From Isurus oxyrinchus (Eukaryota), in assembly GCA_026770705.1 (NCBI GenBank), contig JANJGN010000034.1:11284001-11348000 (forward strand): a stretch of 64,000 bases of DNA. The letters are read 5' to 3'. The notes beneath the pieces were generated by a model. The model ran no database searches. It saw only the letters and a program-made list of their open reading frames with translations, and was not told the origin of the DNA. This document shows, piece after piece, positions 4,681 to 63,425 of this stretch. Both the position numbers and the translations under genes were made by a program. How positions within the stretch are numbered: the stretch's first letter is position 1; each line of letters starts with the position of its first letter.

Positions 4681-4724
4681 CTCATCAATTCACTGTAAAC
4701 CGACCGATCGTGCACTTGTAATCC
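4681..4724 (-). CDS. Gene A cytoplasmic exon 4 GLQVHDRSVYSELM (second ITAM tyrosine)
   Basis: ttttaacag| ... AG|GTATGT, 44 nt, phase 0-2; completes YMGL-x7-YSEL. Confidence 0.85.
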
Positions 4725-4854
4725 CTGTTAAAATTAATAATATATTTGTTTTTTTAGTGAACAACAATAGAGTGCGTTAAAAGAGAACTGAGGTGAAATA
4801 TAGGATAAATAGTCAGTGAATGAAATAAAAGAATGCACAAAAAAATATCCTGAC

Positions 4855-4896
4855 CATATAAGTAGAGTCTTCCTCAAGTGGTTTTGTAGCTTGCTC
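4855..4896 (-). CDS. Gene A cytoplasmic exon 3 EQATKPLEEDSTYM (first ITAM tyrosine)
   Basis: tttttacag| ... ATG|GTCAGG, 42 nt, phase 0-0. Confidence 0.85.
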
Positions 4897-5372
4897 CTGT
4901 AAAAATGCAATTTGAAAAACGATGTATAAGCAGGTACACAAGAAATCCATGTGATTACTTCATAATTTAGAACGATTAGAATGTCATATATCCCACAATA
5001 AAAGTTATACCAATTTCCCTAAAATAACTAGCCCCAAATTAAATTTCAGGGGTGAATGTTCATTACTAGCACGTGGTGAAAGAGGAGCAACAGCGCACAG
5101 AATATTCATTTCACTCAGCACTCGGTTATCATGACTGTGGTAAAATTGAAAATTGACGCCAATATTCCATGCTGCAACAGAAGCATTGTTTGATAATCTT
5201 ATAAAAACAGGAACCAGTCCACTAACCGAGTAAGGCAAAGAACACCGAAACCCCTACCCTAGTCTAACTTATTGCCAAATCGAGTTTACTCCGACTGCAT
5301 GAACATTGATATTGTTATCCTCACTGGAATGAACTCGCCAATGTGACCATGTTTTAATACAATTGTACCAAC

Positions 5373-5437
5373 CTTTTGTTTTCTTGGAATATTTTCGTAG
5401 GCTGATGCTGAATTCTCCCCTATTGCAGCAGGGCTGC
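5373..5437 (-). CDS. Gene A cytoplasmic exon 2 SPAAIGENSASAYENIPRKQK (YEN motif)
   Basis: ttctcacag| ... AAG|GTTGGT, 65 nt, phase 1-0. Confidence 0.85.
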
Positions 5438-6808
5438 CTGTGAGAATGCAAAACAGTTAATCACATCTCCACATATAATCACAGAATCATACAATGACAG
5501 AGCACAATCGGAGGTCCTTTAGCCCACCATGCCAGTATCAGCTCTTTGAAGGTGAAATACAATTAATCCCATTCCTCAAACATTTTCGTACACCCTTGTA
5601 AGTTTCCTTAACGTACATATCCAATGTCCTTGTCCAACTGATATTCAATATGATTCCAACAAATGTTTATGTTATGCAACCCGATCATAGCAATTCGCTG
5701 CCTAAATAAAAATTTACACCTCACGCAGCCGTCTTTTTGGGAACTAGATTTCATTTTTACCACCTATGGCTGCTTACAGTTTCTCCTAATTTCCTCTATC
5801 ACGATATTTCCCGATTTTGAACACCTCTGTAAAATCTCCCATCAGCCTCCCTGCTGTAAGGAGAATAAGCCGAGCTACTCCCATTCCTCCACGGAGCTAC
5901 TTCTGTAAATCTGCAGTACACTCTCCTCAAGACAGTAACATTAGTCCTGAATCATTGCACCATGTACATGCCAATAGAGTGAGAACGGTTGCTTCATGTT
6001 CTGAGGAATTGCAGCTTTTGTTTCTTAGTTTTCTCTTTCTGTTTACTGGGGTGGACTCCGTTCGTGCTAATTTAATGATTACTTGAGTTGTAGGGTCAAT
6101 TTTACGAACTAAGGGTACACTTGGAACAGCCGTAATCAAGGAATGAAAATTGGTGGGAATCTAGTTCTACGTTTTTCAATATAACGCAGAAGAGATATCA
6201 AATCGGCTGCTGGTTCGCCATCATCTATTCTACATTAGAGAGATGGGCGCAATTGTCCTAGGTATTTCATCATGTGGGTGTTCCTGAAGCTGACAGATTC
6301 ACACTTTGAGCACCCAAGTAGCAGAAAACACAATGGTTAGTTCCAGGCAAAACCTTTGTCTCACCGTCAGCTCTGTATGTGCACACAAATCTATTCGGTT
6401 TTGAACTTTCACGAGGAATGTACAACTCACTGTAAAATGAAGCTTTCACATGAAAATAGATACAGAAGCATATATTGGATGTTATTGGTGTCAACGTATT
6501 TTCAGTCAGATATAATTTGCATGAACGATTGCTTCTTTTCACCATTCACAAGTTAGTGAAACCTATATTAAACAGAATGTTGAGCGATAGACATGTTGAT
6601 CCGAACTTCTTTTAAAATAGCATTTAGCTGTTAGGCAATTGTGCGTAAAAGTGCTCAACAAGAACAAGTTTATCTACATTGATGTGCAAACTTAAAGATT
6701 CATAAATCTGCCCGATGTATGCTTATTTGAATGAACTTCAACTCATAAAGCACTATTGACCCCTGCAACCATACATTCAACATGGAAATGCTAAAGTATT
6801 TCACTTAC

Positions 6809-6864
6809 TATTTTCTGTTGGACTAATGTTCGTTGCAATTTGCCCTTGCGTTGGTTGTTGCATC
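6809..6864 (-). CDS. Gene A cytoplasmic exon 1 MQQPTQGQIATNISPTEN
   Basis: tttctttag| ... |GTAAGT, 56 nt, phase 2-1, joins TM exon and Cyt2 in frame. Confidence 0.85.
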
Positions 6865-7029
6865 CTAAAGAAATGTAGTGCAACATAATAAAATAAACAT
6901 TTTCAGGACGATATAATATTGCAATCATGATCTGCAACAGAAATCCTATTTGATAATGTCTTATTATTAGTGAAAAATATTTTCCTAACTGGAAGGAACA
7001 AATTTCATCATGCTGGGCAACATCGACAT

Positions 7030-7165
7030 TATTTTATTCTTTTATGGGACGTGGGCGTCGTTAGCTGAGCCAGCATTTTTTATTGCCTATCCCTAATTGC
7101 CCTTGAGAAGACGGTTGTGAGCCGTCTTCCTGTGCCGCTGCTGTCCATATGGCGTAGGAGCACCT
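7030..7165 (-). mobile_element. CR1/SINE 3-prime tail fragment in the TM-Cyt1 intron
   Basis: gccagcattttttattgcctatccctaattgcccttgag tail motif. Confidence 0.75.
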
Positions 7166-7448
7166 AAAACAGTTTGAGTATTTGGAAGATGCAAAACTAA
7201 GGAACTGCATCAGCAACAGTAGTGGAGCGTTATCATACAAGAGTGGGGAACTAACAGTAGGTGATTTTTGTCAATCAGAAATATAAACGATTATTATTGA
7301 CTGTGTAAACCTGACTTATAAGTATATAGACTTGGACAGAGACATAAACATATTTTGAAACAACCTTTCGCGCATTTCCTTTGATTCAATTCATCAGGCT
7401 ACAGACAAACTACTAAAGGTGCAGATAACATTTACATAGACTATTTAC

Positions 7449-7572
7449 CAGCATACTTTCTTTTTGATCAGCCACGCGCTTATCCCGCTGATCATTCCCA
7501 GAATAAGTAGAACAACAATCACGATGCCTGCTTTGTGACCACTGCCTAATTCAGTGGTGGAGGAATGTTGTC
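7449..7572 (-). CDS. Gene A transmembrane exon QHSSTTELGSGHKAGIVIVVLLILGMISGISAWLIKKKVC(W)
   Basis: Acceptor gcattttcag|, donor |GTAAAT, 124 nt open, phase 1-2; ~22-aa hydrophobic segment with AGIVI motif followed by KKK. Confidence 0.9.
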
Positions 7573-15279: not shown

Positions 15280-15900
15280 GATGGCCCCAGGATCTAGTGA
15301 TGTTGCCCAGGATCTAGTGATGTTGCCCTGGATCTAGTGATGTTGCCCTGCACTCACAATGCCGAGGTGTTGAACATGGCCAGAAGGCCATGTTTGGACA
15401 ATGTGTAAGAAGTCTCCAAAAAGTGACCCTGAAGAGGGAGTGAGAGCTTGTGGCAAAGATTGTGAATGCCCAAAGCATCTCACCTCAGACCTGGCAGTTG
15501 TGCCAATAAAGATTTAATGACCTCGCTTTGGGCAAGGTGGGCAAATGGATTAGCACACAGGGTCTGGTAATCAAAACAATTGACACCACACATCGCTTCA
15601 GGCACCAGGTCCTGACATTCAGGGGTCATTCCTAACATCCTTACATCGACATCTCAACCAAACACATCTCAAAGCCATACCAGCTACCCACATGGTAGAC
15701 ACAGCCCCATATACTTCCAGAGATTCAGCTACTGCACACATCACACACACATTTAATGATGCCCTGGCCTCTCTCCTGCAGGAGAATACATTCACAACAG
15801 CTGCGAACGCCAGTGGACCAGAAGAGGACCAGTCCAAATGCAGTCCATCAGTGCTAAGAGGGGATTTACATTCGGAGCATTGGCAGAATTGCTACTGAAC
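15280..15900 (+). mobile_element. Harbinger Myb/SANT-like partner gene remnant (two exons)
   Basis: APGSSDVAL ... RE*ELVAKIVNAQSISPQTWQLCQ*RFNDL and second exon HNSCERQWTRRG fit the trihelix Myb/SANT pattern. Duplicate at about 56570-57180. Confidence 0.75.
15286..15350. repeat. 20-bp tandem repeat cccaggatctagtgatgttg x3 (x2 in copy 2 at about 56576-56620)
   Basis: Directly visible. Confidence 0.95.
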
Positions 15901-18549
15901 CAGTGGCATTTGGCGCAGAGTATGCCATCCTAAATGATGGTTAGTTGTTGCCTTGTGCACTTTGCCCACTAACTTCCTACTCCCACTCTGAAAGGTGACA
16001 TGAAATTAAAACTTGCAAATTTAGTTACCATGGACAATACAGCCTCCTTTCTCTTATCCTTACTAACCTCCCCCAATAGTTTTCATCATCCAAAAACTGT
16101 CAGCTGCTCAGCACCTTCACAGAGAATAAGATTTGAAGAGGAAACACAGTCACTGAACCAAATGGTCGCAGCCACCAGCCCAGATATTTGCACACTTGCA
16201 TAACTGAGAGGCTAGTTTCAGAATCAGAATCTGCAAGTACTAAGTCATTAGGCATGCTTGGGCTGCAGCCAGGACAGGGTATAGGTGAGCTCCTGTGCCC
16301 TCTCATGATGCCCATGACACCTCCATCGCTCATTCATAACCCCATGACCCCTCATATCTACCAGGCTCCGCATACACTGTGCATAACCACTCATCCAGTA
16401 TCCACTATGTGCAGAGCACATGAGACAAGTGATGCCAAACGAAAAGACTTTCAAATGCACTACAAAAAAATTGCATCTCTTACATGCACAGAAAATGTCA
16501 ACCAAACGTGCATCCATTCATAATCCAGAGATAAAACTTCAGTCCTAATGGCGGAAAGAAATCTCTTAAGTGGTCATTAAGTTGTGAAATTAAACAACCA
16601 CCCATTCAAAAAAAATGCATTAAAGAAACTGAAACCAATGGCATGAGCATAAAACAGTCAGTTCGCTTCACAGCTGTGTCAACAGATCCCCTGATGAGCT
16701 CAGTGGTTTCTGAAACTCAGCCAAGTATTCCTAATGGGCTCAGCTGCAAAAAACAGACTATTACAGCGGAAAAGAATTATCACTTTTGAAGTAAAAGGAA
16801 TGGATGGAGAGGTTTTCTTCTCAAAATTTCAGTTTAGACCAGGAACAAATGGACAGATTTTTTTCAATCTTCAGATCACAAAAAACAGGCTCCCCCTCTC
16901 ACATTTTTACATGTTTTTGAACGCATAAGTACAATTTCCGCAATGAAAATATACCCTAATGCATCTCAATACGTAACCAGTTCTGGTCAATGTAATTCTC
17001 AACTTATCTTTTAAGGGCAGATAGTTCTGATCAATCATTGTATTAAAAACATAATTAAAGCGATAGAAAAACCATGAACACACACTTACACGGGTACACC
17101 GTCGTTAAAAGCACATATTATCTTACACCATCTAAACATGTTTGAACATATGTGTCAAAACGCTCAGGACTCCAGAGTAGTATTTCCCCCATGATTGTGA
17201 AATCCTCTGCGGAGCCATGAACGGCATCGCCTTGGAAAGGTTGCCCTAAATGCATCAACATTGTACGGGGCTTTCAAAGGTACACACCTCCAGCAACAAC
17301 AACAACACCGCCCCCCCCCCCCCACCCCCGCTCACCCTCGCCCCGCAATGGAATCAGAACAGTTGCGAGTACAAGGTACAGGGTCGCTTTCCTGTGCCGG
17401 CAAAAGCTGCTGACAATGGGAATGGGGCGGGTATCTTAGAATCCGGCCCCACCCACCAATTTTATAGACCTTCTGACTCGGTATGAAGGCACAAAAAGCC
17501 AGCCCCATGTGTGTGAATCTGTGTTTAAAACCTTGCGATGAGCCCTAGTGGACAAAATAATCTGCATTGTGAAATGTTGTTCAGGGAAGCCTCAAGTTAC
17601 AAGATATATTCAATAACCTGTATAAAAGGTTTGGTAAGTAATCATGGGGCCTGGTACACTATGTAACACCAGAATTGGTTGATGCTGTCTATGGATTTGG
17701 GTAATGTTGTTTGTAGCATCGAACCCAGCCTATGTGAAACTACCGCCCTACTGCGGTCTGACACTACTCTCCTGTTTTACACAGTACTTTCCAAATACGG
17801 ACCCACAACAAATTGGAGGTCAGTCACTCCACCTCTACTGCAATTATAGTATTAGTCGTCCATTCAGATAAAAAACGTGCCTCCACTATATACAGGGGAC
17901 CAATTTGTGAGCAGCAAATGCAGTAGACTAAATTTAAAGATGTGTAAGTGAATCGCTGTCTCCCTTGGAATGCATAATTGAGTCCTTGGAAGGTAAAGAG
18001 GGGGAGATAAAGGGGCAACCGATAGGCCTTCTCCAATTCCATGCAAAGGAGTGAGATGTTGGGCGCGTTGGAAGACTGGACCAAGACGTAATGGAGGGAA
18101 ATGTTCCTATGGAATGCTGACAGGAGACGTGATGGACTATTAAAGTGAAGCTTGGGATTTAGGAAGATAATTAGCATAAAAGTTTCCTGCTAGTATGAAA
18201 TGCTTTAAAATGCAACATGAAATAAAATGACAAATAGATTTCACCATTAATGTGTTTCCCATTCACCGATATCAAAGTGGAAGTCTTCATTTGGAAATAT
18301 GCATGGAAGAAGGCTATGGAAAACAGTTCAAGGGTTAAAACAATTTGATAGTTCGATACTTCATAGCATCAAATTAACAGTTATTTGTGAGTGCAACAAG
18401 TGCAATGTTACCCCCAATTCTATCAACAAAACTAACAGGACCAAAGAGCTGCACTTTCTTTCTATTCATACAGTTAACTATTAAATAACTTGACCTTTGC
18501 ATGGGTGAAATATAAGTTAATGAAATAGGATTCAGAAATGTGTACTTAC

Positions 18550-18809
18550 TTATTACAACTTTTTGTTTGGTTGAGGTGTTGTTCCTTTTTGTTAATCCGT
18601 TTTAGGGGCTGAGAGGTATGTGTTCCAGCGCCATTCAAAGTAATGCTAGAAATGATGAGTTGTTGCCCTTTTTGCTGCAGAGAGGCATTGTTGATACACT
18701 ATTCTAATTCTGCAGGGAGGTTTGAGGCCATAGAACACGAGAAATTAATGGTTTTTCAAAAAGATAAGCGGACAAATCAGAGTCTATGGATATGTTTGGG
18801 AGATTGGGT
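18550..18809 (-). pseudogene. Gene A IgC2 B-type exon, disabled
   Basis: PNLPNISIDSDLSAYL / TINFSCSMASNLPAELE*CINNASLQQKGQQLIISSITLNGAGTHTSQP / GLTKRNNTSTKQKVVI|GTAAGT; CEACAM B-domain pattern; Trp to TAG, second Cys to Ser, -1 and +1 frameshifts. Confidence 0.88.
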
Positions 18810-19004: not shown

Positions 19005-20930
19005 TTTTTTATTATTTCGTTCATGGGAGGTTTCAATTACTGCCAGGCCAGCATTTATTGCCCATCCCTAGTTGCCCTTGATAAGGTGTTGGTGAGCTGC
19101 CTTCCTGGGACACTGCAATCCACATAGAGCACGTGTACCCACAGTGTATTTGAGAGGGTTGGGTGTGGTGGTGGGCTGGTGTTTCCAAGATTTTCTTCCA
19201 GCAGTAGTTGAATTTCCAAGTCAGGGTGGTATGTGGCTTTAGGTTGGGGGTTAGAAGGGTGGTGGCGATGGTGGACGTCCTGGTGGTTCTCTTCCCACTT
19301 GTCTGCTGCCCTTCTCCTCCGAGATAGTCGGGGTCCTGGGTTTGGGATGGGCTGTCTAAGAAGCATTGGTCAGCTCCTGCAGTGCAAGTTGCAGATGCAT
19401 CGACATTGCTGCTACTATGCGTCGGAGGTGGAAGGAGTAAATGTTTGTGGATGAGCTGCCAATCAAGTAAGTTGCTTCGTCCTGGATGGTGTTGAATTTC
19501 ATGAGTGTTGTGGGAGCTGCATTCATCCAGGCAAGTGGGGAGTATTCCATCACACTCCTGACTTGTGCCTTGTAGGTGGTGTACAGCCTTTGGGGAGTCA
19601 GCAGCTGAGTTACTCGTCACAGAATTCCCAGCCTCTTACCTGCTCTTGTCACCATGCTATTTATATGGCTAATCCAGTTCAGGTTATGGACAATGCTAAT
19701 CCCGAGGTTATTGGCAGTGTGGGATTCAGTGATGGTAATGACTTTCAATGTCATGAGGCAGTGAATAGATTTTCCCTTTTTGGAGAGGTTCCTAACAATT
19801 GTGTGGCACGAATGTTACTTGCTACTTGCCAGCCCAAACCTGGATATTGTCATGGTCTTGCTGCATTTGGACATGGATTGCTTCAGCGTCCGAAGGGTCA
19901 CAAATGGTACTGAATTTTGACAATCATCAGTGAACATACCTCCTTCTGACCTTATAATGGGAGGAAGATCATTTATGAAGAAATTGACGATGGATTGGGG
20001 GAGGGGATTATCCCGATGAACCCACGCAGCGATGTCCCAGAGCTGATATGATTGATCTCCAACAACTAGAGCCAACTTCCTTTGTGCGAGGTAAGACCCC
20101 CACCAGCTGACAGCTATCCTCCTCTTATCCATTGGTTTTACTATTGCAAAGGCTCCTTGAAGCCACATTCGGTCGAATGCAGCCTTGATGTCAAGGGCAG
20201 TCACTCACACCTCAACTCTGGAGTTCAGATCTTCTGCCGATGTTTGAACCAAGGCTGCAATTGTTCAAACCATTACAGGAACTGAGCGATTTTTGTGGAT
20301 CCCAAAGTTGGCATTGGTGAGTTGGTTATTTCGAAGCAAGTGTTGCTTGATAGCACTGCTGGTGATCCCCTACACCACTTTTCTGACTGTAGGGAGAAAA
20401 CTGTTAGCGCAGTAATTGGCTGGGTTGGATTTCTAATGCTTTTTGTGCAGCGAACGTACCTGGGCAAATTTCCACAATGGCGGGTAATGCCAGTGCTGTA
20501 GAAGCCAATGCTGCAGCTGTACTGGAACAGCATGGCTAGGGTCGCAGCAATTTGAGAAACATAAGTCTTCAGTTCTGTTGCCACAATATTGTCAGGGCCC
20601 AAAGCCTTTGCAGTATCCAATGCCTTGAGCTGTTTGTTGATATCTCATGTAGTGAACGGAATTGACTGAAGACTGGCACGTGTAATGCTGGGGAACTCCG
20701 GCAAGGCCGAGATGGATCATCTTGGCACTTATGGCTGGAGATTGTTCCAAAAGCCTCAGCCTTATCTTTTGCATTCACGTGTTGGTCTTCCCCATCATTT
20801 CGAATGGGGATTTTTGTGGAGCCTCCTCCTCCAATGAGTGGTTTAGTTGTCCACTACCATTCACAATTGGATGTGGCAGGACTGCAGAGCTTAGATCTGA
20901 TCCGTTGATTATGGAATTCTTTAGCTCTGC
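19005..20930 (-). mobile_element. CR1-clade LINE, 5-prime truncated ORF2 (RT) remnant
   Basis: ALDIKAAFDRMWLQG, FINDLPPIIRSEGGMFTDDC, AKALGPDNI, MEYSPLAWMNAAPTTL; 3-prime tail gggcaataaatgctggcc. Confidence 0.92.
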
Positions 20931-22143: not shown

Positions 22144-22437
22144 AGCTACCATTTAGATTGGTTCGGTCACTTGTTACTCTGCAAAAGGAGTTGAATGCTT
22201 GGCACTTGAATCGTCCATCAGACCTAATCACTAGTGATATATAGTGAGAAATATAGTGAGAGTTCTATTACCACCACTTAGATCAAAGCTGCTATCCGTA
22301 ATAATAGCGCGATTATCCTCAAGCCACTGATATGAAACTGCAATGCCTGATACGATGCATGTCAGATGTCAATACGGTGTCATTGTATTTGACTGTGTTG
22401 GTGACATTGGTGATAATATTAGGTTTATAAACAGGTT
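22144..22437 (-). pseudogene. Gene A IgC2 A-type exon, frameshifted
   Basis: tttgacag|EPVYKPNIITNVTNTVKYNDTV / LTCIVSGIAVSYQWLEDNRAIITDSSFDLSGGNRTLTI / SLVIRSDGRFKCQAFNSF..SDRTNLNGS; matches the CEACAM A-domain pattern; two frameshifts, a 12-bp tandem duplication and a degenerate donor. Confidence 0.88.
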
Positions 22438-25149
22438 CTGTCAAAACACAGGAAAGTAGGTATCAGACCTTAAAAGTAAATTTGGAGGATGGTGGATTTA
22501 GCTCCAAGTTCTAAAGGCAGCATTTCATTTTGAATTTTCATCTGTTGTTTCCTTTCGGTAATAATTCCTGTGATGCTGGTGTTAATAATTCTACGATCTT
22601 TATCCCCACCCCACTACCCCCACGCAACCCCCACCTCCCCCTCACCACACGTGCCCCGCACACCCACACCCTCCGCCCCCAACGAGGTAAACCTGTCTCC
22701 TTGAATTTATTGCTCACTTAGAATATCAACTTAAATAAATTTCCAATCATGAAAGGAACATAGCCTACTAAACCAATTACAGACTCGGTCCTAAAATAAA
22801 ATGTCCTCTCCCCGAAGACCTCGAACCTAATGTATTTATTTGAAGATAGAACATGCGTAGAGGTATCTTATAGCAGACTGAACTGTTGTGGAGTTTCCCT
22901 AAATCAGCTCTTCGGATTCTAACTTCGACTCCTAGGATATTTTGATCATGTATGTGGGCTCGCGGGAGAATATAGATTGGGGACTGCAACTCTTGTGCAC
23001 TTAGTTAATACATGTTTTAAATCAAAGCCAAATATATATTACAGCTAATACATGAGACATATAGATGATAACTAAATCAAATCATATCATCTCAATAATA
23101 TTTAAGGGAAATACATTTTAACCCACCATAATCAGCAGTTTTTTTTTTGCATAAAAAACAAATATCAATTAAAGGTAATCATACGCACAAACCATTGTAA
23201 TTACTCAAGATTCTGGAGTGTCTTTGTCTCAAATATAGGGAATCCAAGCTTAGACTGATACTCATTCTATGGCTGCAAAGAAGGCCAAAAGATTGTTGAC
23301 CTATGGGCAACAATACCATCTGTCTGTTTATAAACATCGCAGCTGAACACAAAAAGGCTTTTGTTATTCATTGGTGTTTGTGATTCCAAAAGAAAAAGCA
23401 GTGAATGAAAATAAGCTATTTATCGGATCAATGTCATTGGTGAGTGTAGATAAGAGACATTTACAGACTAAATGGAAACATTTTGGTTGGCAGCCTTTCA
23501 AATAGTAGAGAGACAATCCAAAGGCTTTTTTGGTTATCTTTGGACTTGAGATCCTCGCAACGATTCATGTAGTGTATCCATGCTATAATATCAAGCTATA
23601 TGCCTAATTGCTTTCCTCTATTAATGTTAATTAGTGCGTCTTAAATTTGCAATAATTGTGTCAGGTTTGTCACACGGTGAACTTAAACCGGGCAAGATCT
23701 ATCTGTTGATCCCTGAGATTCAGACTGCGCAGCAGAGACCTGGACTCCAGTAATATAACATTCTGCCCTTCTCATCATTCTCAAAATAAGAGCCAAACTA
23801 CTCACTGCAATAAAAAAAGTTTCTCCTCATAATACTTTTGTTTATTTTATTGATTACTTTAAAGTGGTGTCCTCACGTTCTCGATCCATTTCTACTGGGA
23901 ATAGGTTCTCCCTAACTACTCTATCCAAACCCCTCACTATTCTGATACCTCCATGGAGCAGTTCCACTGTTGAGAAACCTACAGCTGGAATTTTAGCTTG
24001 ATGGCGCAGCTGGGCTGAGTGCCAGTCAGAAATCGGGCTCCAGAGGCTCTTGATGTTTCTCACTGCTCGCTCAGCCTCTCCGTAGCTTGGAAACGGACAG
24101 GCAACTGCTGACAAGAGCGATCCCATTGAGCTTGGCAAATTTTCTAAAGTGCTCATGGAAGGATTGTGGTCTGCAGTGAGACGGTTTTATCTGGAAACCC
24201 ATGTGTGTAAAGTATGGCCAGCAGCATCTTGCACGGTTTCGTCCATCACCTCATAAACACAGGGCGGGACTGGTGGACTAATAGACTGCAACAAGGCGGC
24301 AGCAGCCCGCCGTTCGCATGTAGGGTGTTGAAAGGAAGACACAGGGGTCCGCCCCTATGTCGTCAGTGGCCAGCCTGCCCCCTGCCTCTCACTCCAGCGC
24401 GTTTATGGGCCGGCAGCTACTGCAACGCCAACTGGGGAATTAGCAAATTAACTTTTTCAACACTTCTTTCGCGCGACCGCCGTGCACCAGGGCTGTGCTG
24501 GAGAGCGCTACCTCGAAACAGGAAGTGCTAAATGTTACCCGCGCTGCGGCAAGGCCATAGAGACCGAGCATTTAACGTCTGAGCTGTGCACTCGCTGCCC
24601 CTCCCCAGCCACCAGTGAGCACAAAGGAAGTCACTATTGTCACAAGCATAGCAAGGTGCTATTCCGTGTCGGGGGCCACCCCACACTCCGTCATATCACC
24701 TCTGAACCAGCATTTTGAAAATGACACAGGCACTGCTCCAACATGGGCCACTGGACGTATTCAGGTTTCTGGGCAGTTCAACTTCCACAAAGTCACAGAT
24801 TCTTGAAATTCTCCATCCCTGATGGTGTCTGAATAAATCAACACCGAGACCGTGAGTACCGATCCACCCGATAATAGGAAGCCCGTGCAGTGTCCATTCT
24901 CCAGGTGTTCTTCAAAAGCAGGAAAGCGGAAAATTGTGATATTTGAACAACTTGTTTGGAAAAGGTCAGGACACCGGAACATTACACACAAAAATGCCAA
25001 AGACACGAGATATTACTCCCAGATCAAGAACTGGCACGTTGCATGGTGCTGCGCCATCCCAGTTAAGTGGGACCGCTGATTGTCTCCCGCTCCAGCAATG
25101 TCTCAAGTTTGAAAAGGTTAAATGGCACTAAGTCCGAGTCACCTCTTAA

Positions 25150-25729: not shown

Positions 25730-26065
25730 GGAAGTAATGCGATAAAGGCCGCAGACTCCCTCTACGTTCAACTGCGGCAGCAACACTGGGTGCTCAGCTC
25801 TGAATGGACGGAGGTCAAGTCCGATGTTTATCGTCCCTCCCTATTCCAACGACAGACTGACCGATACCTTTCTCCCTGAATACTCAGTTCCTATACCCCG
25901 CCTCAGTCGACGGCTCCACTGGGTTTGCGGGGGGTGGGGGAGTTGGTGGGGGCGGGGGGGCTGGGGGGGTGGGGCGATGGGGACGGATGGGTGGAAATGC
26001 TTTGCCTCCGACTGTCACATTTATCTGAATGTTTTCTTTCAAGGTACTTAAACCCTGGGGATCAG
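25730..26065 (-). pseudogene. Gene A IgV-like N exon, disrupted
   Basis: Acceptor ctttccttag| then ADPQGLSTLKENIQINVTVGGKAF, a ~70-bp C-rich insertion, then VEPSTEAGYRN*VFREKGIGQ (conserved Trp changed to TGA); aligns with gene B N exons. Lower boundary uncertain. Confidence 0.75.
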
Positions 26066-26231
26066 CTAAGGAAAGGTAATCACATCAGTGAAGCGAAGCG
26101 GCCAAACTCGACACGGCATTTTCATTTCTAAACTGATAATTCCTGTTATATTTTAACCTGATTCTCTGACAAGCTCTTTTTGTCTTCCTTCTCTATCTTT
26201 AAAAGAAATCATAGGAGAAATTGATACTCAC

Positions 26232-26283
26232 CTTTATCCATTAATAAGCAAAGAGCGACCACAGTTAAAAGGGGTCTGATCAA
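26232..26283 (-). pseudogene. Gene A leader exon, (M to L)IRPLLTVVALCLLMDK, start codon mutated to TTG
   Basis: 52-nt hydrophobic exon ending G|GTGAGT (phase 1); same length and position as the gene B leader, which has ATG where this has TTG. Confidence 0.8.
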
Positions 26284-33834: not shown

Positions 33835-34580
33835 TTTTTTCAATTCATCCACGGGGTGTGAAGTTCGCTGACTGGGCTATCACTTAATGCCCATCCCTAA
33901 TTGCAATTCAGATGGTGGTGGTGAGATGATATTTTGAACCGCTGCACTCCCTGTGGTGTAGGCACAACCACAGTGCTGTTAGGAAGGGAGTTCCAGGATT
34001 TTGACTCAGCGACAGTGAAGGAACGGCCGATATATTTCCAAGTCAGGTTGTTGAGTGGCTTGGAGGGGAACTTCCAGGTGGTGGTGCTCCCATGTGTCTG
34101 CTGCCCTTGTCCTGCTAGATGGTAGTGGTTGTGGGTTTGGAAGTTGATGTCCAAGGAGTATTCTGAATTTTTAAAGTGTACCTTGTGCATGGTACACACT
34201 TCTGCCACTGTGCGTCGGTGGTGGAGGGAATGAATGTTTGTGGATGGGATGCCAATTAAGCTGGCTGCTTTTTCCTGGATGGTGTCAAGCTTCTTGCTTC
34301 TTGTGGGAGCTGCGCTCATCCAGGCCAGTGGGGAGTATTCCACCAGCAGGGCATTGATTTTGGGGGAATCAGTGATGCTAATGTCATTGAACATCAAGAG
34401 CGATTGTTCGATTCTCTATTTTTGGAAATGTCATTGGCTGGTGTTTGTGTGGTGGGAATGTTATCGGCTAGTCGTCATCCCAAGCCAGGATATTGTCCAG
34501 GTCTGGCTGCATTTGGACATGGAGTGCGTCAGCATCTGTGGAATCGTGAATGGTGCTGGGCATTGTGCAATCATATGCAA
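33835..34580 (-). mobile_element. CR1-clade LINE 3-prime fragment
   Basis: VEYSPLAWMSAAPT..KLDTIQEKAASLIG..SKSWNSLPNSTV; same family as 19005-20930. Confidence 0.9.
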
Positions 34581-35992
34581 ATCATTCATATTTTACTATC
34601 ATGCATGGATTCTATGTCCTGTTTAATAATTCATTACTTCTCTCTGTTTCCTATGCTCAGAATACCAGTCGTCAAACCCCATAGCATAAATTCATGAAAC
34701 ATGCACCTTTATATCACATAAATACATAGTTCTATACATATTTTAACAAAAGCATGAAAAATTATGAATGGATATATTCGGCACCTGGAGATAATAATCC
34801 TTATCCAACATAGGCATGCTGGGTCAATAATGATGCATGGTGTAGGGTGCGGCAGATGCTGATGTTTATCTGTGAGTTGAAGTTTCACAGGATGGAGGAT
34901 ATGAGACTGTGATGGAGAGAAAATGAGCTTACACATCAAATTTGGGGTGGAGTTTGGCACCGGTTACAGCCTTGCAACAATAGCTGGGAAAATGGGGATC
35001 TAAAGGCTACAGAGGTTTCCACCTGAAGGTGTTCCATTTATCCTGATTCTCCGCTTCCTGGCCAATGGCCTTAATCTACCTACTGATTCACTAAAGGCAG
35101 CTGCATCTCATTCATGGTTTAATGTTCAACAAACAATGTGACATCACAGAAATAGAGGAGAGTCGTGGTGGTTGGCACAGAGGGAGAGATGGATGTTTAG
35201 AGCAAGTTGGTGGAAACAGATCCGATATCAAGGAATTTTGCCTCCAGAAGATAACAGGTACATGAGGTAAAGTTGCACAGGAATAGTTCAGTGGTTTAAC
35301 TGAAAGGCGGTAGATGGAGAGAATAGCCATATCTGCAAGTTCGCTGCCTTGATTTGGATCTCTTCTAGAGTTACTAAGGAATAGCAGTCCCACTGAGTTC
35401 AAAACTTAAGAATGATAGTTTTTTTGACTATACTGAAGAATGCAAACTGGCTGCAGAACCATACACGGTGCTCCATGACCAGGGAAAGACAGCTTGCTCT
35501 TCATCCGCCCAGGGCAGCTTCAGTGTTGCAGTCGGAATGCAAGCTGCAGCAGGGAGACATAAGTTGGGAGTCGGCTTAAATAGAGAAATGTATGTGATGT
35601 GTATCCATGTTCGGCATCTCTAGAGAGGAATGGGAATATCAATATGGGTGCTAGATTGCAGTTGCGGGTAGGGATTTTGGGGTTTTCTTGTGGGAAGTTA
35701 TTGCTAACATTAGTGTTGAAAATTAGAACATCCAAACTCAATAATGTTAAACTGGCAGCTGGAGTGAACTAGAGAGGCAGGAAAGGAATATGTTGAATAG
35801 GTGGTGAGACTCACTGATGTGATGACTTGCGACAAGGAATGATCGGAGATCTAACAGGAACTTCAAGGCAAGAAGAAATGCAAAGCATCGGTAATAAAGA
35901 CAAAATACGACGCATGCGCAGAACGTGAATCAAAAACAAAAAAATGCTGGAAAAACGCAGCAGGTCTGAAAGCATCTGTGGAGAGCGAGACC

Positions 35993-38848: not shown

Positions 38849-39151
38849 TTGCCAGGGAAATTCTTTCGATTGTTTGCGCTCTTGTGGGCGCAGTGTAATC
38901 TCCACCGTCCCACACTGTCAAGGGCTTCAGTAGGAGTGATCCGTTAGGCATGAGCAAGGCTGTATTGAATTGTATTTTCTTAATTGTGAAGCTGGACAGA
39001 CCGTTCCACACCAAGAATTTTGTCTTCCCGAAGTACCACAACCAAACCTTCACACCATCTGAGGGTTTAACTGAAAGAAAAATGCGTTTCCTCCGACGGT
39101 CCCATTAATCCGATTGTTTCCTGTCAGAGACAGTAAAACCCTGGGGCACAG
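38849..39151 (-). pseudogene. Gene B IgV-like N2 exon, disabled
   Basis: VPQGFTV / TGNNRINGTVGGNAFF / SVKPSDGVKVWLWYFGKTKFLVWNG..LMPNGSLLLKPLTVWDGGDYT; acceptor AG changed to AT; frameshifts. Confidence 0.82.
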
Positions 39152-39204
39152 ATGAGGAAAATAAACCCGTAATGAGAAAGGCGGTCACACTCGGCACATC
39201 GTTG

Positions 39205-39457
39205 GCTTTTCTGTAACGATGTTGATAGTGTAATCTCCACTGTCCGAACCTCTCACTGAATTCAGCAGGAGGGACCCGTAAGATAGGAATAACTCAGCAC
39301 GTTCATAGCGTTCAATAGTTCTACCAGAGCCTGCATGGAGCCACTTCGCGATGCTTTTGTCCCCGAATTGCCATCTCCCATTCCGCACCACAGCTGACGG
39401 CTCCACCCGAAAAATCTACAGCGTTTCCTCCCACGGTCGCTTTAATCCGACTGTGTA
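39205..39457 (-). pseudogene. Gene B IgV-like N1 exon (Cys-less, CEACAM N-type), frameshifted and 3-prime truncated
   Basis: ctcctcag|VHSRIKATVGGNAVDFS / VEPSAVVRNGRWQFGDKSIAKWLHAGSGRTIERYERAELFLSYGSLLLNSVRGSDSGDYTINIV; GSLLL..DSGxY V-set signature; +1 frameshift. Confidence 0.85.
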
Positions 39458-39616
39458 CTGAGGAGAGAAATCCAAAATAATAAAAGCGGTCAAACTCCAC
39501 ACAACATACACTTTTCGAAAGTGATAATAATAACATCCACTGATTTGCCCTGAGAATCTCGTGCTGTCGTTCTTCTCCAAACCTTAGCAAGAGAGATACG
39601 AGAAAGTGATCCTCAC

Positions 39617-39668
39617 CCACAGGTATCAATAAATAAACATGTCCCGCGCTAAGTGTCAGTCTCCACAT
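39617..39668 (-). pseudogene. Gene B leader exon MWRLTLSAGHVYLLIPV
   Basis: ATG at 39666-39668, 52 nt, G|GTGAGG donor (phase 1); homologous to gene A leader. Confidence 0.75.
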
Positions 39669-45976: not shown

Positions 45977-46020
45977 CTCATCAAGTCACTGTAAACCGAC
46001 CGATCGTGCACTTGTAATCC
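45977..46020 (-). CDS. Copy 2 cytoplasmic exon 4 GLQVHDRSVYSDLM
   Basis: 44 nt, intact AG/GT; single E to D change keeps YxxL. Confidence 0.85.
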
Positions 46021-46150
46021 CTGTTAAAATTAATAATATATTTGTTTTTTTAGTGAACAACAATAGAGTGCGTTAAAAGAGAACTGAGGTGAAATATAGG
46101 ATAAATAGTCAGTAAATGAAATAAAAGAATGCACAAAATAATATCCTGAC

Positions 46151-46192
46151 CATATAAGTAGAGTCTTCCTCAAGTGGTTTTGTAGCTTGCTC
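46151..46192 (-). CDS. Copy 2 cytoplasmic exon 3 EQATKPLEEDSTYM
   Basis: 42 nt, identical to copy 1. Confidence 0.85.
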
Positions 46193-46668
46193 CTGTAAAA
46201 ATGCAATTTGGAAAACGAAATATGAGCAGGTACACAAGATTTCCATGTAATTACTTCATAATTTAGAACGATTAGAATGTCATATATCCCACAATAAAAG
46301 TTATACCAATTTCCCTAAAATAACTAGCCCCAAATTAAATTTCAAGGGTGAATGTTCATTACTAACACGTGGTGAAAGAGGAGCAACAGCGTACAGAATA
46401 TTCATTTCACTCAGCACTCGGTTATCATGACTGTAGTAAAATTGAAAATTGACGCCAATATTCCATGCTGCAACAGGAGCATTGTTTGATAATCTTATAA
46501 AAACAGGAACCAGTCCACTAACCGAGTAAGGCAAAGAACACCGAAACCCCTACCCTAGTCTGACTTATTGCCGAATCGAGTTTACTCCGATTGCATGAAC
46601 AATGACATTGTTATCCTCACTGGAATGAACTCGCCAATGTGACCATGTTTTAATACAATTGTACCAAC

Positions 46669-46733
46669 CTTTTGCTTTCTTGGAATATTTTCGTAGGCCG
46701 ATGCCGAATTCTCCCCTATTGCAGCAGGGCTGC
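46669..46733 (-). CDS. Copy 2 cytoplasmic exon 2 SPAAIGENSASAYENIPRKQK
   Basis: 65 nt, intact AG/GT; three differences from copy 1, all synonymous. Confidence 0.87.
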
Positions 46734-48106
46734 CTGTGAGAATGAAAAACAGTTAATCACATCTCCACATATAATCGCAGAAGCATACAATGACAGAGCA
46801 CAATCGGAGGTCTTTTAGCCCACCATGCCAGTATCAGCTCTTTGAAGGTGAAATACAATTAATCCCATTCCTCAAACATTTTCGCACACCCTTGTAAGTA
46901 AGCTTCCTTAACGTGCATATCCAACGTCCTTGTCAAACTGATATTCAATATGATTCCAACAGATGTTCATGTTATGCAACCCTATCATAGCAATTCGCTG
47001 CCTAAATATAAATTTACGCCTCACGCAGCTGTCTTTTTGGGAACTAGATTTCATTTTTACCTCATATGGCTGCTTACAGTTTCTCCTAATTTCCTCTATC
47101 ACGATATTTCGCGATTTTGAACACCTCTGTAAAATCTCCCATCAGCCTCCCTGCTTTAAGGAGAATAAGCCCAGCTACTCCCATTCCTCCACGGAGCTAC
47201 TTCTGTAAATCTGCAGTACACACTCCTCAAGACAGTAACATTAGTCCTGAATCATTGAACCATGTACATGCCAATAGAGTGAGAACGGTTGCTTCATGTT
47301 CTGAGGAATTGCAGCTTTTGTTTCTTAGTTTTCTCTTTCTGTTTACTGGGGTGGACTCCGTTCGTGCTAATTTAATGATTACTTGAGTTGTAGGGTCAAT
47401 TTTACGAACTAAGGGTACACGTGGAACAGCCGTAATCAAGGAATGAAAATTGGTGGGAATCTAGTTCTACTTTTTCAATATAACGCAGAAGAGATATCAA
47501 ATCGGCTGCTGGTTCACCATCATCTGTTCTACATTAGAGAGATGCGCGGAATTGTCCTAGGTATTTCATCATGTGGGTGTTCCTGAAGCTGACAGATTCA
47601 CACTTTGAGCACCCAAGTAGCAGAAAACACAATGGTTAGTTCCAGGCAAAACCTTTGTCTCACCGTCAGCTCTGTATGTGTACATAAATCTATTCGGTTT
47701 TGAACTTTCACGAGGAATGTACAACTCACTGTAAAACGAAGCATTCGCATGAAAATAGATACAGAAGCATATATTGGATGTTATTGGTGTCAACGTATTT
47801 TCAGTCAGATATAATTTGCACGAACGATTGCTTCTTTTCACCATTCACAAGTTAGTGAAACCTATATGAAACAGAATGTTGAGCGATAGCCATGTTGATC
47901 TGAACTTTTTTTCAAATAGTGTTTAGTGCTGGGCAATTGTGCGTAAAAGTGCTCAACAAGAACAAGTTTATCTAAATTGATGTGCAAACTTAAAGATTCA
48001 TAAATCTGCCCGATGTATGCTTATTTGAATGAACTTCAACTCATAAAGCACTATTGACCCCTGCAACCTGACATTCAACATGGAAATGCTAAAGTATTTC
48101 ACTTAC

Positions 48107-48162
48107 TATTTTCTGTTGGATTAATGTTTGTAGCATTTTGCCCTTGCGTTGGTTGTTGCATC
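48107..48162 (-). CDS. Copy 2 cytoplasmic exon 1 MQQPTQGQNATNINPTEN
   Basis: 56 nt, intact AG/GT, phase 2-1. Confidence 0.85.
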
Positions 48163-48747
48163 CTAAAGAAATGTAGTGCAACATAATAAAATAAACATTT
48201 TCAGGACGATATAATATTGCAATCATGATCTGCAACAGAAATCCTATTTGTTAATGTCTTATTATTAGTGAAAAATATCTTCCTAACTGGAAGGAACAAA
48301 TTTCATTCATGCTGGGCAACATCGATATTCCTTTATTCTTTTGCCGGACGTGGGCGTCGCTGGCTGTGCCAGCATTTTTTATTGCCTATCCCTAATTGCC
48401 CTTGAGAAGACGGTGGTGAGCCGTCTTCCTGTGCCGCTGCTGTCCATATGGCGTAGGAGCACCTAAAACAGTTTGAGTATTTGGAAGATGCAAAACTGAG
48501 TAACTGCATCAGCAACAGTAGTGGGGTGTTATCATACCAGAGTGGGGAACTAACAGTAGGTGATTTTTGTCAATCAGAAATATAAACGATTATTATTGAC
48601 TGTGTAAACCTGACTTATAAGTATATAGACTTGGACAGACACATAAACATATTTTGAAACAACCTTTCACGCATTTCCTTTGATTCAATTCATCAGGCTA
48701 CAGACAAACTACTAAAGGTGCAGATGACATTTACATAGACTATTTAC

Positions 48748-48871
48748 CAGCATGCTTTCTTTTTGATCAGCCACGCGCATATCCCGCCGATCGTTCCCAG
48801 AATAAGTAGAACAGCAATCACGATGCCTGCTTTGTGACCACTGCCTAATTCAGTGGTGGAGGAATGTTGTC
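48748..48871 (-). CDS. Copy 2 transmembrane exon QHSSTTELGSGHKAGIVIAVLLILGTIGGICAWLIKKKAC(W)
   Basis: Open 124-nt exon with intact splice sites. Confidence 0.9.
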
Positions 48872-60069: not shown

Positions 60070-60264
60070 CTATGTAAAATAAGTGCACAAATATATTTTA
60101 ATAACATTATGCTAAAATGAAAAGCAGCAGTGGACTATACATTTGCGGCAATCACCAACATCAGAGAAACTACGCACCCTTGTGTTTTATGCAGTCCATC
60201 ATGCAAACTTAAGTCAATAAGTTGTGCCATTTTCCCCGGTGCTCACTGGTGGGATCCAATGTCA

Positions 60265-62190
60265 GTTTTTTATTATTTCGTTCATGGGAGGTTTCAATCA
60301 CTGCCAGGCCAACATTTATTGCCCATCCCAAGTTACCCTTGATAAGGTGTTGGTGAGCTGCCTTCCTGAGACACTGCAATCCACGTAGAGCACGTGTACC
60401 CACAGTGTATTTGAGAGGGTTGGGTGTGGTGGTGGGCTGGTGTTTCCAAGATTTTCTCCCAGCAATAGTTGAATTTCCAAGTCAAGGGGATGTGTGGCTT
60501 TAGGTTGGGGGGTGGAGGGGTGGTGGCGATGGTGGACGTCCTGGTGGTTGTCTTCCCACTTGTCTGCTGCCCTTCTCCTCCGAGATAGTCGGGGTCCTGG
60601 GTTTGGGATCGGCTGTCTAAGAAGCATTGGTCAGCTCCTGCAGTGCAAGTTGTAGATGGATACACATTGCTGCTACTATGCGTCGGTGGTGGAAGGAGTA
60701 AATGTTTCTGGATGATGTGCCAATCAAGTAAGTTGCTTCGTCCTGGATGGCATTGAGTTTCATGAGTGTTGTGGGAGCTGCATTCATCCAGGCAAGTGGG
60801 GAGTATTCCATCACACTCCTGACTTGTGCCTGGTAGATGGTGTACAGCCTTTGGGGAGTCAGCAGCTGAGTTACTCGTCACAGAATTCCCAGCCTCTTAA
60901 CTGCTCTTGTCACCATGCTATTTATATGGCTAATCCAGTTCAGGTTATGGTCAATGCTAATCCCGAGGTTATTGGCAGTGTGGGATTTTTGATGGTAATG
61001 ACTTTCATTGTCATGAGGCAGTGAATAGATTTTCCCTTTTTGGAGAGGTTCCTAATAATTGTGTGGCACGAATGTTACTTGCTACTTGCCAGCCCAAACC
61101 TGGATATTGTCATGGTCTTACTGCATTTGGACATGCACTGCTTCAGCGTCCGAAGGGTCACGAATGGTGCTGAATTTTGACAATCATCAGTGAACATCCC
61201 TCCTTCTGACCTTATAATGGGAGGAAGATCATTTATGAAGAAATTGACGAAGGACTGGGGGAGGGGATTATCCCGATGAACCCATGCAGTGATGTCCCAG
61301 AGCTGATATGATTGACCTCCAGCAAGTAGAGCCAACTTCCTTTGTGCTAGATATGACCCCCACCAGCGGAGAGCTATCCTCCTCTTATGCATTGATTTTA
61401 CTATTGCAAAGGTTCCTTGAAGCCACATTCGGTCGAATGCAGCCTGGATGTCAAGGGCAGTCACTCACACCTCACCTCTGGAGTTCAGATCTTCTGCCGA
61501 TCTTTGAACCATTCTGCAATGGTTCAAACCATTACAGGAACTGAGCGATTTTTGTGGATCCCAAAGTTGGCATTGGTGAGCTGGTTATTTCGAAGCAAGT
61601 GTTGCTTGATAGCACTGCTGGTGATCCCCTACATCACTTTTCTGACTGTAGGGAGAAAACAGTTAGCGCAGTAATTGGCTGGGTTGGATTTCTAATGCTT
61701 TTTGTGCAGCGAATGTACCTGGGCAATTTACCACAATGGCGGGTAATGCCAGTGCTGTAGAAGCCAATGCTGCAGCTGTACTGGAACAGCATGGCTAGGG
61801 TCGCAGCAATTTGAGAAACATAAGTCTTCAGTTCTGTTGCCGGAATATTGTCAGGGCCCAAAGCATTTGCAGTATTCAGTGCCTTGAGCTGTTTGTTGAT
61901 ATCTCATGTAGTGAACCGAATTGGCTGAAGACTGGCACCTGTAATGCTGGGGAACTCCGGCGAGGCCGAGATGGATCACCTTGGCACTTATGGCTGGAGA
62001 TTGGTCCAAAAGCCTCAGCCTTATCTTTTGCATTCACGTGTTCGTCTTCCCCATCATTGCGGATGGGGATTTTTGTGGAGCCTCCTCCTCCAATGAGTGG
62101 TTTAGTTGTCCACTACCATTCACAATTGGATGTGGCAGGACTGCAGAGCTTAGATCTGATCCGTTGATTATGGAATTCTTTAGCTCTGCC
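60265..62190 (-). mobile_element. CR1-clade LINE remnant (copy 2)
   Basis: Duplicate of 19005-20930. Confidence 0.92.
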
Positions 62191-63425
62191 AGGTTAGCAA
62201 TGGTGGCACCAGAATTGAACCTGGGGAAATTCAGGTGCAGTACCATTAACACTGTATTCGTAATTCAAAGGCCCAGGATAAGGCCCTGGGGACATGGGTT
62301 CAATTGCTACCACAATATCTAATGGACTTTAAATTAAATTAATAAATCTGGAATATAATGCTAGTCTCAGTAATGGTGACTAACCAGGGCAACTATCATT
62401 CATAGACAGATAATCAAGCTGGTTCACTAATGTCCTTTGGGGTAGGAAATCTGCGGTCCCTAACACTTATGGCTTCCAAACACACAGAAATGTGGTTGAC
62501 TCTCAACTGCCTTCTGAAGTGGCCTAGTAAGCCATTCAGTTCAAGGGCAATAAGGGATGGGCGGCAAATGCTGGCCTTGCCAGTGACACCCACATTCCAT
62601 GATTTTTTAAAACATAAAAGCCAAGGTCTCCTGATTCTGATGATTTCTAATCACTTTTGTTGAATACATATGTACATTTGGAGATCAGGGATGGAGAGGA
62701 TATGATTCCTGCTGTGAGCTGCAATTTTAAAATGTGAGATCTGTACAAACCTGCTGGGCACATATAGCAGTATGGTTGCATCAAAATGTATTGTTCTGAG
62801 AAAAAATATCTATTAAAATTTGAGTTGGACAATTATGATTCTTTCCCTCAAACCAGTCTGAATTTCATCTTTTATCGGATTTAAAAATAAACTAATTAAC
62901 TTCATTGAAAATACTTTAACTTTATTTATTTAACTTTATTGAAAATGAAACCCGAATTTTCACTGAAGAATCACACAACTGTTCAAATACTACGTACAAT
63001 AAACTCGTATGTGTTACATCATCTGGTGTTCCCGCTCATAGAATTAAGATTGAGCCGTTATGTCTAATGGCTTCTGGGATCATACCACAATAGGTTATCA
63101 CCCCCGAAAGTTAATTCATTTAAGATTAGTCTGTAAACAAAGAAGTGTATAGCCAACAAAAACTGTTCCAATACTATCAATTATCAGTGAACATAAATTT
63201 TATGATGAGTTCTGTCTCAAAAACATCTAAGTATTTCGAGTATACTTATTTACATAAATAATCTGAGGCAATTTTCCTTGGCAATGTAAATGTGATGAGC
63301 TATTTGTTTACATGTTTCAGTAAATAATCCTTATATGCAAACAATCATTTATTTCCCTTTTTCAATCTGAAATGTAGCAGGTATGGTGATAAGTTACAAA
63401 AGTAATGATCTGTTGGAGCACCTGC

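Follow-up and report, generated by a model that had tools for sequence, protein, structure and literature searches.

The window, a 64,000-nt stretch of contig C34, carries on its minus strand five small exons that together encode the membrane-spanning and cytoplasmic tail of a receptor. These comprise an intact 124-nt transmembrane (TM) exon at positions 7449 to 7572 (phase 1 to 2) and four cytoplasmic exons: C1 (56 nt, intact, 6809 to 6864, phase 2 to 1); C2 (65 nt, 5373 to 5437, phase 1 to 0), which contains a YxN motif; C3 (42 nt, 4855 to 4896, phase 0 to 0), which encodes acidic residues and the first tyrosine of an ITAM; and C4 (44 nt, 4681 to 4724, phase 0 to 2), which encodes the remainder of the ITAM. 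Each exon was flanked by AG at the 5' end and GT at the 3' end, and the intron phases read from the window (1, TM, 2, C1, 1, C2, 0, C3, 0, C4, 2) gave a single reading frame. The boundaries, phases and translation were those of the original prediction, and the ITAM and YxN motifs that it had proposed were read from the exons with canonical spacing. The product runs from a hydrophobic helix through basic residues and a YEN in the second cytoplasmic exon to the ITAM, a docking motif for Syk/ZAP70. This motif has the form DxxYxxL-x7-YxxL, with the D at -3, and the phase-0 intron between C3 and C4 splits the first YxxL, matching the pattern D/ExxYxxL/I-x6-8-YxxL/I with a phase-0 split; it also fits the ITAM consensus given in excerpts of PMC2832619 and PMC5112662.

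The tail would be completed by a terminal exon, predicted to start on the minus strand at 2085 to 2091 behind a conserved acceptor, which finishes one codon and adds one codon before the stop, giving four cytoplasmic exons, the second with the YxN, followed by a predicted two-codon terminal exon. This acceptor was kept in five of the six diverged copies listed, and the predicted ends coincided with the C termini of RefSeq models P0011, P0001 and P0012. The pair of 42- and 44-nt exons, together with the donor, was also present in a distant paralog at C34:10,940,696. Within C2, 18 nt from its start, a second acceptor in the same frame would yield a 47-nt exon. Inspection of the long open reading frames of the window detected none of the tail exons, and Pfam returned generic Ig matches with no ITAM family match. 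A strict splice scan missed three of four known control exons and was therefore loosened; its scores rest on rough splice frequencies. A loose split-ITAM signature occurred 14 times in a 1.4-Mb region around the window compared with a mean of 1.2 (range, 0 to 5) in 20 shuffles, an excess which was taken as supporting evidence only because the 14 occurrences are paralogs and hence not independent.

Splicing was examined with sequencing runs, of which 16 were listed, all guessed to be RNA and none on record as such, and four were compared with the tail of an intact paralog, L099. Spliced contigs from two of the four runs, both of one study, joined TM to C1, C1 to C2, C2 to C3 and C3 to C4 with GT-AG ends, these joints including the homologs of the window TM and C1 junctions, and a third run from another study joined C2 to C3. 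Run X4 contained none of the four junctions, which counts as no evidence of absence. Three of the L099 joints fell at the predicted boundaries, while the C1-C2 joint used the in-frame acceptor 18 nt further on, producing the 47-nt form of C2 that is also used by RefSeq model P0012. The predicted junctions were thus borne out at four homologous positions in this paralog, one of them at a shifted acceptor. A single contig from run X5 carried the letters of the window-type C1-C2 junction with the 65-nt exon; the eight genomic copies that have these letters, six of them headless and two of them sister units that retain an N exon, are all possible sources of the contig. As the contigs diverge by about 2 to 5% from the genome analysed, they may derive from a relative.

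With an intact N exon as query, 18 proteins were recovered from 532 candidates, and all 18 carried shark names, in agreement with the cartilaginous fish source that had been proposed from the letters of the sequence. Among 17 proteins that were read, six had an ITAM tail, five had the tail of the partner gene described below and six had a short tail or none. The models compared were P0011, P0001, P0012 and P0009 of white shark, P0002 and P0014 of basking shark, and also P0007 and P0016. ITAM-tail models were found in four species (white shark, basking shark, catshark and sevengill), in all of which the ITAM and YxN tyrosines were preserved. Identity to the window tail reached 98 of 111 residues in P0001 and 95 of 111 in P0011, a white shark model named 'CEACAM4-like' which, like P0016, has an N-TM-ITAM structure. 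These models have the same exon-derived tail as the window and possess the N domains that the window copy lacks. The tail type, first described as hidden and lineage-specific, is therefore neither, since the automated RefSeq annotation of four further shark species contains it; the proteins are listed there under unreviewed automated names, without analysis of motifs or pairing.

A search with the DNA of the window tail gave 15 matches, none of them outside the segment of contig C34 from 11.245 to 11.804 Mb. Eight of the copies were of the window type; six of these were headless, and the other two were sister units in which the leader-N (L-N) cassettes are intact and the A/B exons broken. Four older copies, at 11.245, 11.257, 11.264 and 11.627 Mb, were damaged or partial. 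In three genes, with N exons at C34:11.696, 11.769 and 11.843 Mb, every exon of an L-N-A-B-A-B-TM-C1-C4 series was open and had canonical splice sites, and the gene model at 11.769 Mb was open throughout its 598 residues. The existence of a tandem cluster with intact paralogs was accordingly upheld, by these three genes and by the 41.3-kb repeat described below. An intact N exon with splice sites was present in five neighbouring genes of the window type or with five Ig domains. Two further, more distant ITAM genes lie at C34 11.21 and 10.93 Mb; splice and ITAM scans did not resolve the cytoplasmic tails of distant genes at C34:10.84-10.88 and 10.95-10.98 Mb. A CD48-like gene was observed close to the cluster.

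The intact paralogs were also used for assignment to a family, with the ranks of PDB matches serving as a proxy for a family tree with CD2/SLAM, HEPACAM and nectin references. The best PDB matches of the A exon were the A domains of CEACAM5 and CEACAM1, and those of the B exon were the B domains of CEACAM5/1/6. For the cysteine-free N exon, mouse CEACAM1 was the best PDB match, at a weak level (9e-5 versus 0.03 for CD2), and CEACAMs filled the first seven rows when a profile of ten N exons was used. These genes have alternating A/B IgC domains in the order A-B-A-B and a cysteine-free IgV-like N domain closest in sequence to CEACAM N domains, with one domain per exon and phase-1 introns linking leader, N, IgC and TM. 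LIPE (C34:12.44 Mb) and XRCC1 (16.65 Mb) were located 0.47 and 4.7 Mb, respectively, beyond the cluster; TMEM145, searched for on contig C34, was not found, so that two of three locus markers were present. All three are CEACAM-locus markers in the excerpted text of PMC3628338, and LIPE and XRCC1 also in that of PMC5112662. The ranks of the A, B and N exons and the LIPE synteny supported the assignment to CEACAM made in the original prediction, and the cluster is very likely of this family.

The copy in the window differs from its intact neighbours upstream of the tail. The window covers one and a half periods of a 41.3-kb tandem repeat, one period extending from 796 to 42062 (796-22718 matches 42062-64000 at 95.7%), and a second headless tail copy lies on the minus strand at 45977 to 48871 (TM, 48871-48748; C1, 48162-48107; C2, 46733-46669; C3, 46192-46151; C4, 46020-45977). 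The IgC B exon (18546 to 18809, minus strand) has an altered start, two frameshifts and a stop codon, and the IgC A exon (22146 to 22440, minus strand) has two frameshifts and a donor changed from GT to GC; both the stop and the GC are common to all eight window-type copies. A leader remnant without a start codon (26283-26232) and a degenerate N exon remnant occupy 25760 to 26283 on the minus strand. The stretch from 38860 to 39668 on the same strand holds a leader-like exon of 52 nt that is open (39668-39617) and, after it, two N exon remnants that carry frameshifts and have no proper donors. All three N remnants of the unit are degenerate. Comparison with the sister unit at 11.536 Mb indicated that the window lacks 1.85 kb containing an intact leader and N exon, with the deletion junction at 24996 to 24997; the sister unit keeps this segment at C34:11,558,413-11,560,265. 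The segment was missing from all six of the 41-kb units. Assembly artefact was ruled out as a source of these units, which differ by 0.8 to 3.9% in their introns in the pairs compared.

An intact N exon with splice sites is the criterion separating gene from pseudogene in the excerpts of PMC2832619 and PMC5112662, and in the window copy the intact cassette is deleted and the remnants are frameshifted. By the criterion of PMC2832619, as excerpted, the six headless copies are likely to be pseudogenes. As the deletion removed the ligand-binding N exon before the 41-kb unit was amplified, the window copy is very probably a pseudogene. The proposal that this copy encodes a receptor was not supported, every upstream Ig exon in the unit being broken and the intact leader-N cassette deleted; nor, with six headless copies among the eight of the window type, was that of a recent tandem expansion of receptors. 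As all eight copies have the GC donor and the B exon stop, the N-only form seen in P0011 was likely in place in their common ancestor. We infer that the window copy arose from an N-only receptor in which N was joined directly to TM, as in human CEACAM3/4.

A different type of gene faces these ITAM genes. This partner begins on the plus strand at C34:11,875,710, while the ITAM genes extend on the minus strand up to 11,843,203, placing the two types in opposite orientation and head-to-head. Its exons encode N, four A/B pairs, TM, cytoplasmic exons of 53 and 44 nt and a terminal exon in which two tyrosine motifs, VVYAQP and TDYAEL, occur; the B exon of the first A/B pair contains a stop in this assembly. 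The 53-nt first cytoplasmic exon is common to the partner and the ITAM gene at 11.21 Mb. Neither VVYAQP nor TDYAEL fits the strict ITIM or strict ITSM of PMC2832619 as excerpted. The two-tyrosine terminal exon was nevertheless kept, without matching the strict consensus, in 5 of the 17 shark proteins, from four species, and the partner tail type occurs in both white shark and basking shark models. Of the ITIM-bearing partner that had been anticipated, the head-to-head gene of inhibitory type was found, but its motifs fall outside the strict consensus. Position and conservation, set beside these noncanonical motifs, indicate that the partner is likely an inhibitory-type gene.

Sequence exchange between the two types of gene was detected at their 5' ends. 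The partner and the nearest ITAM gene share a 678-bp leader-intron-N block that is 96.2% identical and stops at the N donor, whereas outside this block the nearest alignable introns are 70 to 76% identical and the TM exons are unrelated (53%). Apart from a second tract covering one A exon (98%), gene conversion was restricted to the leader/N region. In a tree of 32 N domains (two exact duplicates were dropped; P0005, P0006, P0010, P0013, P0015 and P0018 were unused; five N domains of P0003, P0007 and P0008 were missed by the extraction), the partner N was sister to an ITAM N of the same species in all three species for which both types were sampled (support values of 95/89, 96/97 and 97/90). 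The 96% leader-N block and the same-species grouping of N domains in three species indicated concerted evolution of paired receptors. Between the partner and its white shark ortholog, 88 of 105 residues were identical in N compared with 349 of 353 in IgC (Fisher p about 1e-8), and 109 of 113 were identical in the tail. Values of dN/dS exceeded 1 in 32 of 36 nonindependent paralog N pairs; when nine paralogous N exons were pooled, the ratio of nonsynonymous to synonymous changes was 43:9, a nonsignificant excess (p = 0.13). Enrichment of changes on the C-C'' and F-G segments of N was borderline (17 of 27; p = 0.05). Three of the four indicators listed in the excerpted text of PMC13278318 (decoy candidates, arrangement and conversion) are present here, and for the fourth, dN/dS, the pooled p value is 0.13. 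Overall, these results indicated that the cluster is probably a paired receptor system.

The same data bear on a reading in which the intact ITAM genes and the partner encode CEACAM-like molecules of adhesion or epithelial signalling, without a role as pathogen decoys, and in which recombination homogenised their N exons as a side effect of the inverted arrangement. The noncanonical partner motifs and a paralog dN/dS not significantly above 1 are consistent with this reading, as is the statement, in excerpts of PMC13278318, that humans and mice are the only species for which pathogens binding CEACAMs are known. However, the conversion tract stops at the N exon donor, the N domains of orthologs diverge far faster than the IgC domains or the tail and the tyrosines of the ITAM and YxN motifs are preserved in four shark species, and we consider this reading unlikely. 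Two loci would fit a variant that goes beyond a mammal-like pair and in which diversity arises at the 5' end: four tandem L-N cassettes, three with their own open leader, precede one tail at C34:11.60 Mb, and two L-N cassettes precede another at 11.22 Mb. Such cassettes could act as alternative first exons on one TM-ITAM tail, forming a variable repertoire of innate decoys fed by conversion from the CEACAM1-like gene, with the headless tails expressed as ectodomain-less ITAM modules; this seems rather improbable.

The intact tails of the headless copies could also be ascribed to function. The window copy would in that case be a headless ITAM adaptor in which the open leader at 39668-39617 is spliced to TM, a small membrane protein nearly devoid of ectodomain that lends its ITAM to other receptors or competes for Syk. 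The leader is open, has a GT donor and is in phase with TM, the five tail exons are intact in all eight window-type copies, including all six headless ones, and one contig contains the window-type C1-C2 junction. In pairwise comparisons of headless copies, however, the tail exons differed by 0.6 to 4.2% compared with 0.8 to 3.9% for the introns, and the differences were mostly amino acid changing; one pair, for example, had 13 differences in 331 nt of tail, with 8 residue changes, compared with 61 in 1897 nt of intron. This comparison of exon with intron divergence gave no sign of selection acting on the headless tails. At the intron rate, only 0.2 to 0.9 frameshifts would be expected in 331 nt. 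As the exons drift at the intron rate and so few frameshifts are expected, the intactness of these tails requires no selection. Furthermore, the splice would have to jump 32 kb and five broken Ig exons, and the TM helix has neither the charged residue nor the cysteine pair that ITAM adaptors use. A headless adaptor is thus a quite improbable account of the window copy.

Derivation of the genes from another Ig family resembling CEACAM (CD2/SLAM, HEPACAM or nectin) was also considered. A cysteine-free IgV domain would also fit CD2/CD48, the N domain has a weak match to 2B4 and a CD48-like gene is nearby; the N-domain model is a confident IgV fold (pLDDT 93), and a fold search with it gave TIGIT, PD-L1 and CD48, with no CEACAM among the rows shown, a generic IgV result that does not discriminate families. 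The correspondence of the A and B exons with their respective CEACAM5/1/6 domains, the placing of CEACAMs first by the N profile and the LIPE synteny argue against another family, which is very unlikely. Long-range splicing, in which upstream intact L-N cassettes reach the window tail and the tails are alternative constant regions for shared variable exons, is hardly credible, for although all genes between 11.25 and 11.84 Mb have the same orientation, all Ig exons there are phase 1-1 and four tandem L-N cassettes precede the tail at 11.60 Mb, some 268 kb, with six complete tails in it, separate the window TM exon from the closest intact N exon on its upstream side, and no junction supports such splicing.

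The best explanation of the locus is that the window contains the TM-ITAM tail of a shark CEACAM, this copy being likely a pseudogene, and that its neighbours are paired on/off receptors (probability of roughly 0.78). By analogy with the systems described in excerpts of PMC11646289, PMC5112662 and PMC13278318, the intact ITAM genes would likely encode decoys, of an activating or endocytic kind, for microbes that use the CEACAM1-like receptor. An adhesin by which a microbe attaches to that receptor would, on this analogy, also bind and cluster the ITAM receptors. Src-family kinases could then phosphorylate the ITAM and YxN tyrosines, and the motifs suggest that Syk/ZAP70-type kinases and Grb2-type adaptors would dock and lead to uptake of the microbe. 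Exchange of sequence by gene conversion within the head-to-head pair would preserve the match of the binding domains despite fast interspecies divergence.

Similar arrangements are known in other vertebrates, and the comparisons made here are with the excerpted text of the papers cited. The marsupial receptors related to CEACAM1 that bear an ITAM, together with their CEACAM1 partners (PMC2832619), share with the shark genes a canonical ITAM, a YxN in cytoplasmic exon 2, the phase-0 split of the first YxxL, four motif-bearing cytoplasmic exons and a pair similarity that is highest over the leader and N exon; some of the activating and inhibitory genes also share the first cytoplasmic exon, as seen with the shark 53-nt exon. 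The shark genes differ in having a predicted tiny fifth cytoplasmic exon and noncanonical partner motifs. Human CEACAM3/CEACAM1 (PMC11646289, PMC5112662) likewise combine an N-only activating receptor with a multidomain inhibitory receptor of similar N domain, and fast interspecies change is confined to N; in contrast, the ITAM-like motif of human CEACAM3 has no acidic residue (PMC2832619), ITAM forms with five Ig domains or with several N domains also occur in sharks and N is missing from the window copy. No orthology is implied by this likeness. The Xenopus group 1/2 ceacam genes (PMC5112662) resemble the shark cluster in their position near lipe, the placing of ITIM and ITAM genes on opposite strands, the confinement of conversion tracts to the leader and N exon and the combination of YxN with ITAM. 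Group 1 N domains of Xenopus are said in that paper to be closest to fish CEACAMs. Xenopus differs in being an amphibian and in the positive selection reported for it (PMC5112662), which in the shark is only suggestive.

Paired ITIM/ITAM CEACAMs with gene conversion have been described for mammals, Xenopus and some reptiles. For cartilaginous fish, the excerpts of PMC3628338 and PMC4079198 report CEACAMs from skate ESTs only, and a literature search that covered few subscription journals found no study of shark CEACAM pairs among the papers listed. The present results suggest that sharks have on/off CEACAM pairs as in mammals and frogs. The window copy provides an example of birth-and-death evolution, in which a headless gene was amplified six times. 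If the reading of its neighbours is correct, the pairing design, comprising a split ITAM, a YxN in cytoplasmic exon 2, an inverted partner and conversion of the N exon, is also present in sharks, and hence either dates to the root of the jawed vertebrates or recurs from the same exon kit. It would also predict the existence of shark microbes that bind CEACAMs.

Cytoplasmic exon C4 was found to be 60 nt long in the three five-Ig ITAM genes of the contig carrying the window (C34:11,656,416, 11,729,954 and 11,803,541), owing to a 16-nt insertion located directly past the ITAM, and the frame of the last exon is shifted. The same 16-nt insertion is also present in the white shark automated RefSeq model P0012.

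A different arrangement was observed at C34:11,601,105-11,609,860, where four leader-N cassettes of 2.3 kb each lie in tandem. All of the N exons are intact, three of the four cassettes have their own open leader, and a single window-type TM-ITAM tail is placed after the fourth. Another white shark RefSeq model, P0001, has the same tail as this locus and bears five N domains in series. At C34:11,210,160-11,224,240 lies an older ITAM gene that has two N cassettes but lacks IgC. Its tail is orthologous to that of basking shark model P0002, and the first of its cytoplasmic exons, 53 nt long, has almost the same sequence as the first cytoplasmic exon of the CEACAM1-like, inhibitory-type partner gene.

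Within the repeat unit of the window, the degenerate sequences at window 19033-20900, 33897-34700 and 60200-62300 are presumably remnants of LINE-like retroelements. Comparison with the sister unit at 11.536 Mb placed a second deletion, of ∼2.2 kb, at window 23957. The intron upstream of the TM exon contains a 20-nt unit present in three tandem copies (window 15285-15345).

Another, distant CEACAM-like group, with an N identity of ∼40%, occupies C34:10,843,900-10,984,600. One N-A-TM gene of this group has the same 42- and 44-nt exon pair encoding a split ITAM, and another reads as N-(A-B)x3-TM up to the TM exon. A broken CEACAM-like remnant consisting of leader and N exons was present on a separate chromosome-scale contig (C1:148,361,700-148,363,620).

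Other Ig-type genes were also detected on C34. A V-C2-TM gene at C34:11,149,100-11,152,430, the V exon of which has CD48 as its best match, has a second, oppositely oriented copy at C34:11,078,348. Two related terminal exons, at C34:10,810,460 (plus strand) and 11,168,365 (minus strand), each carry an ITIM-like and an ITSM-like motif and have I-set Ig exons nearby; these terminal exons possibly belong to Siglec/CD22- or FcRL-like genes.
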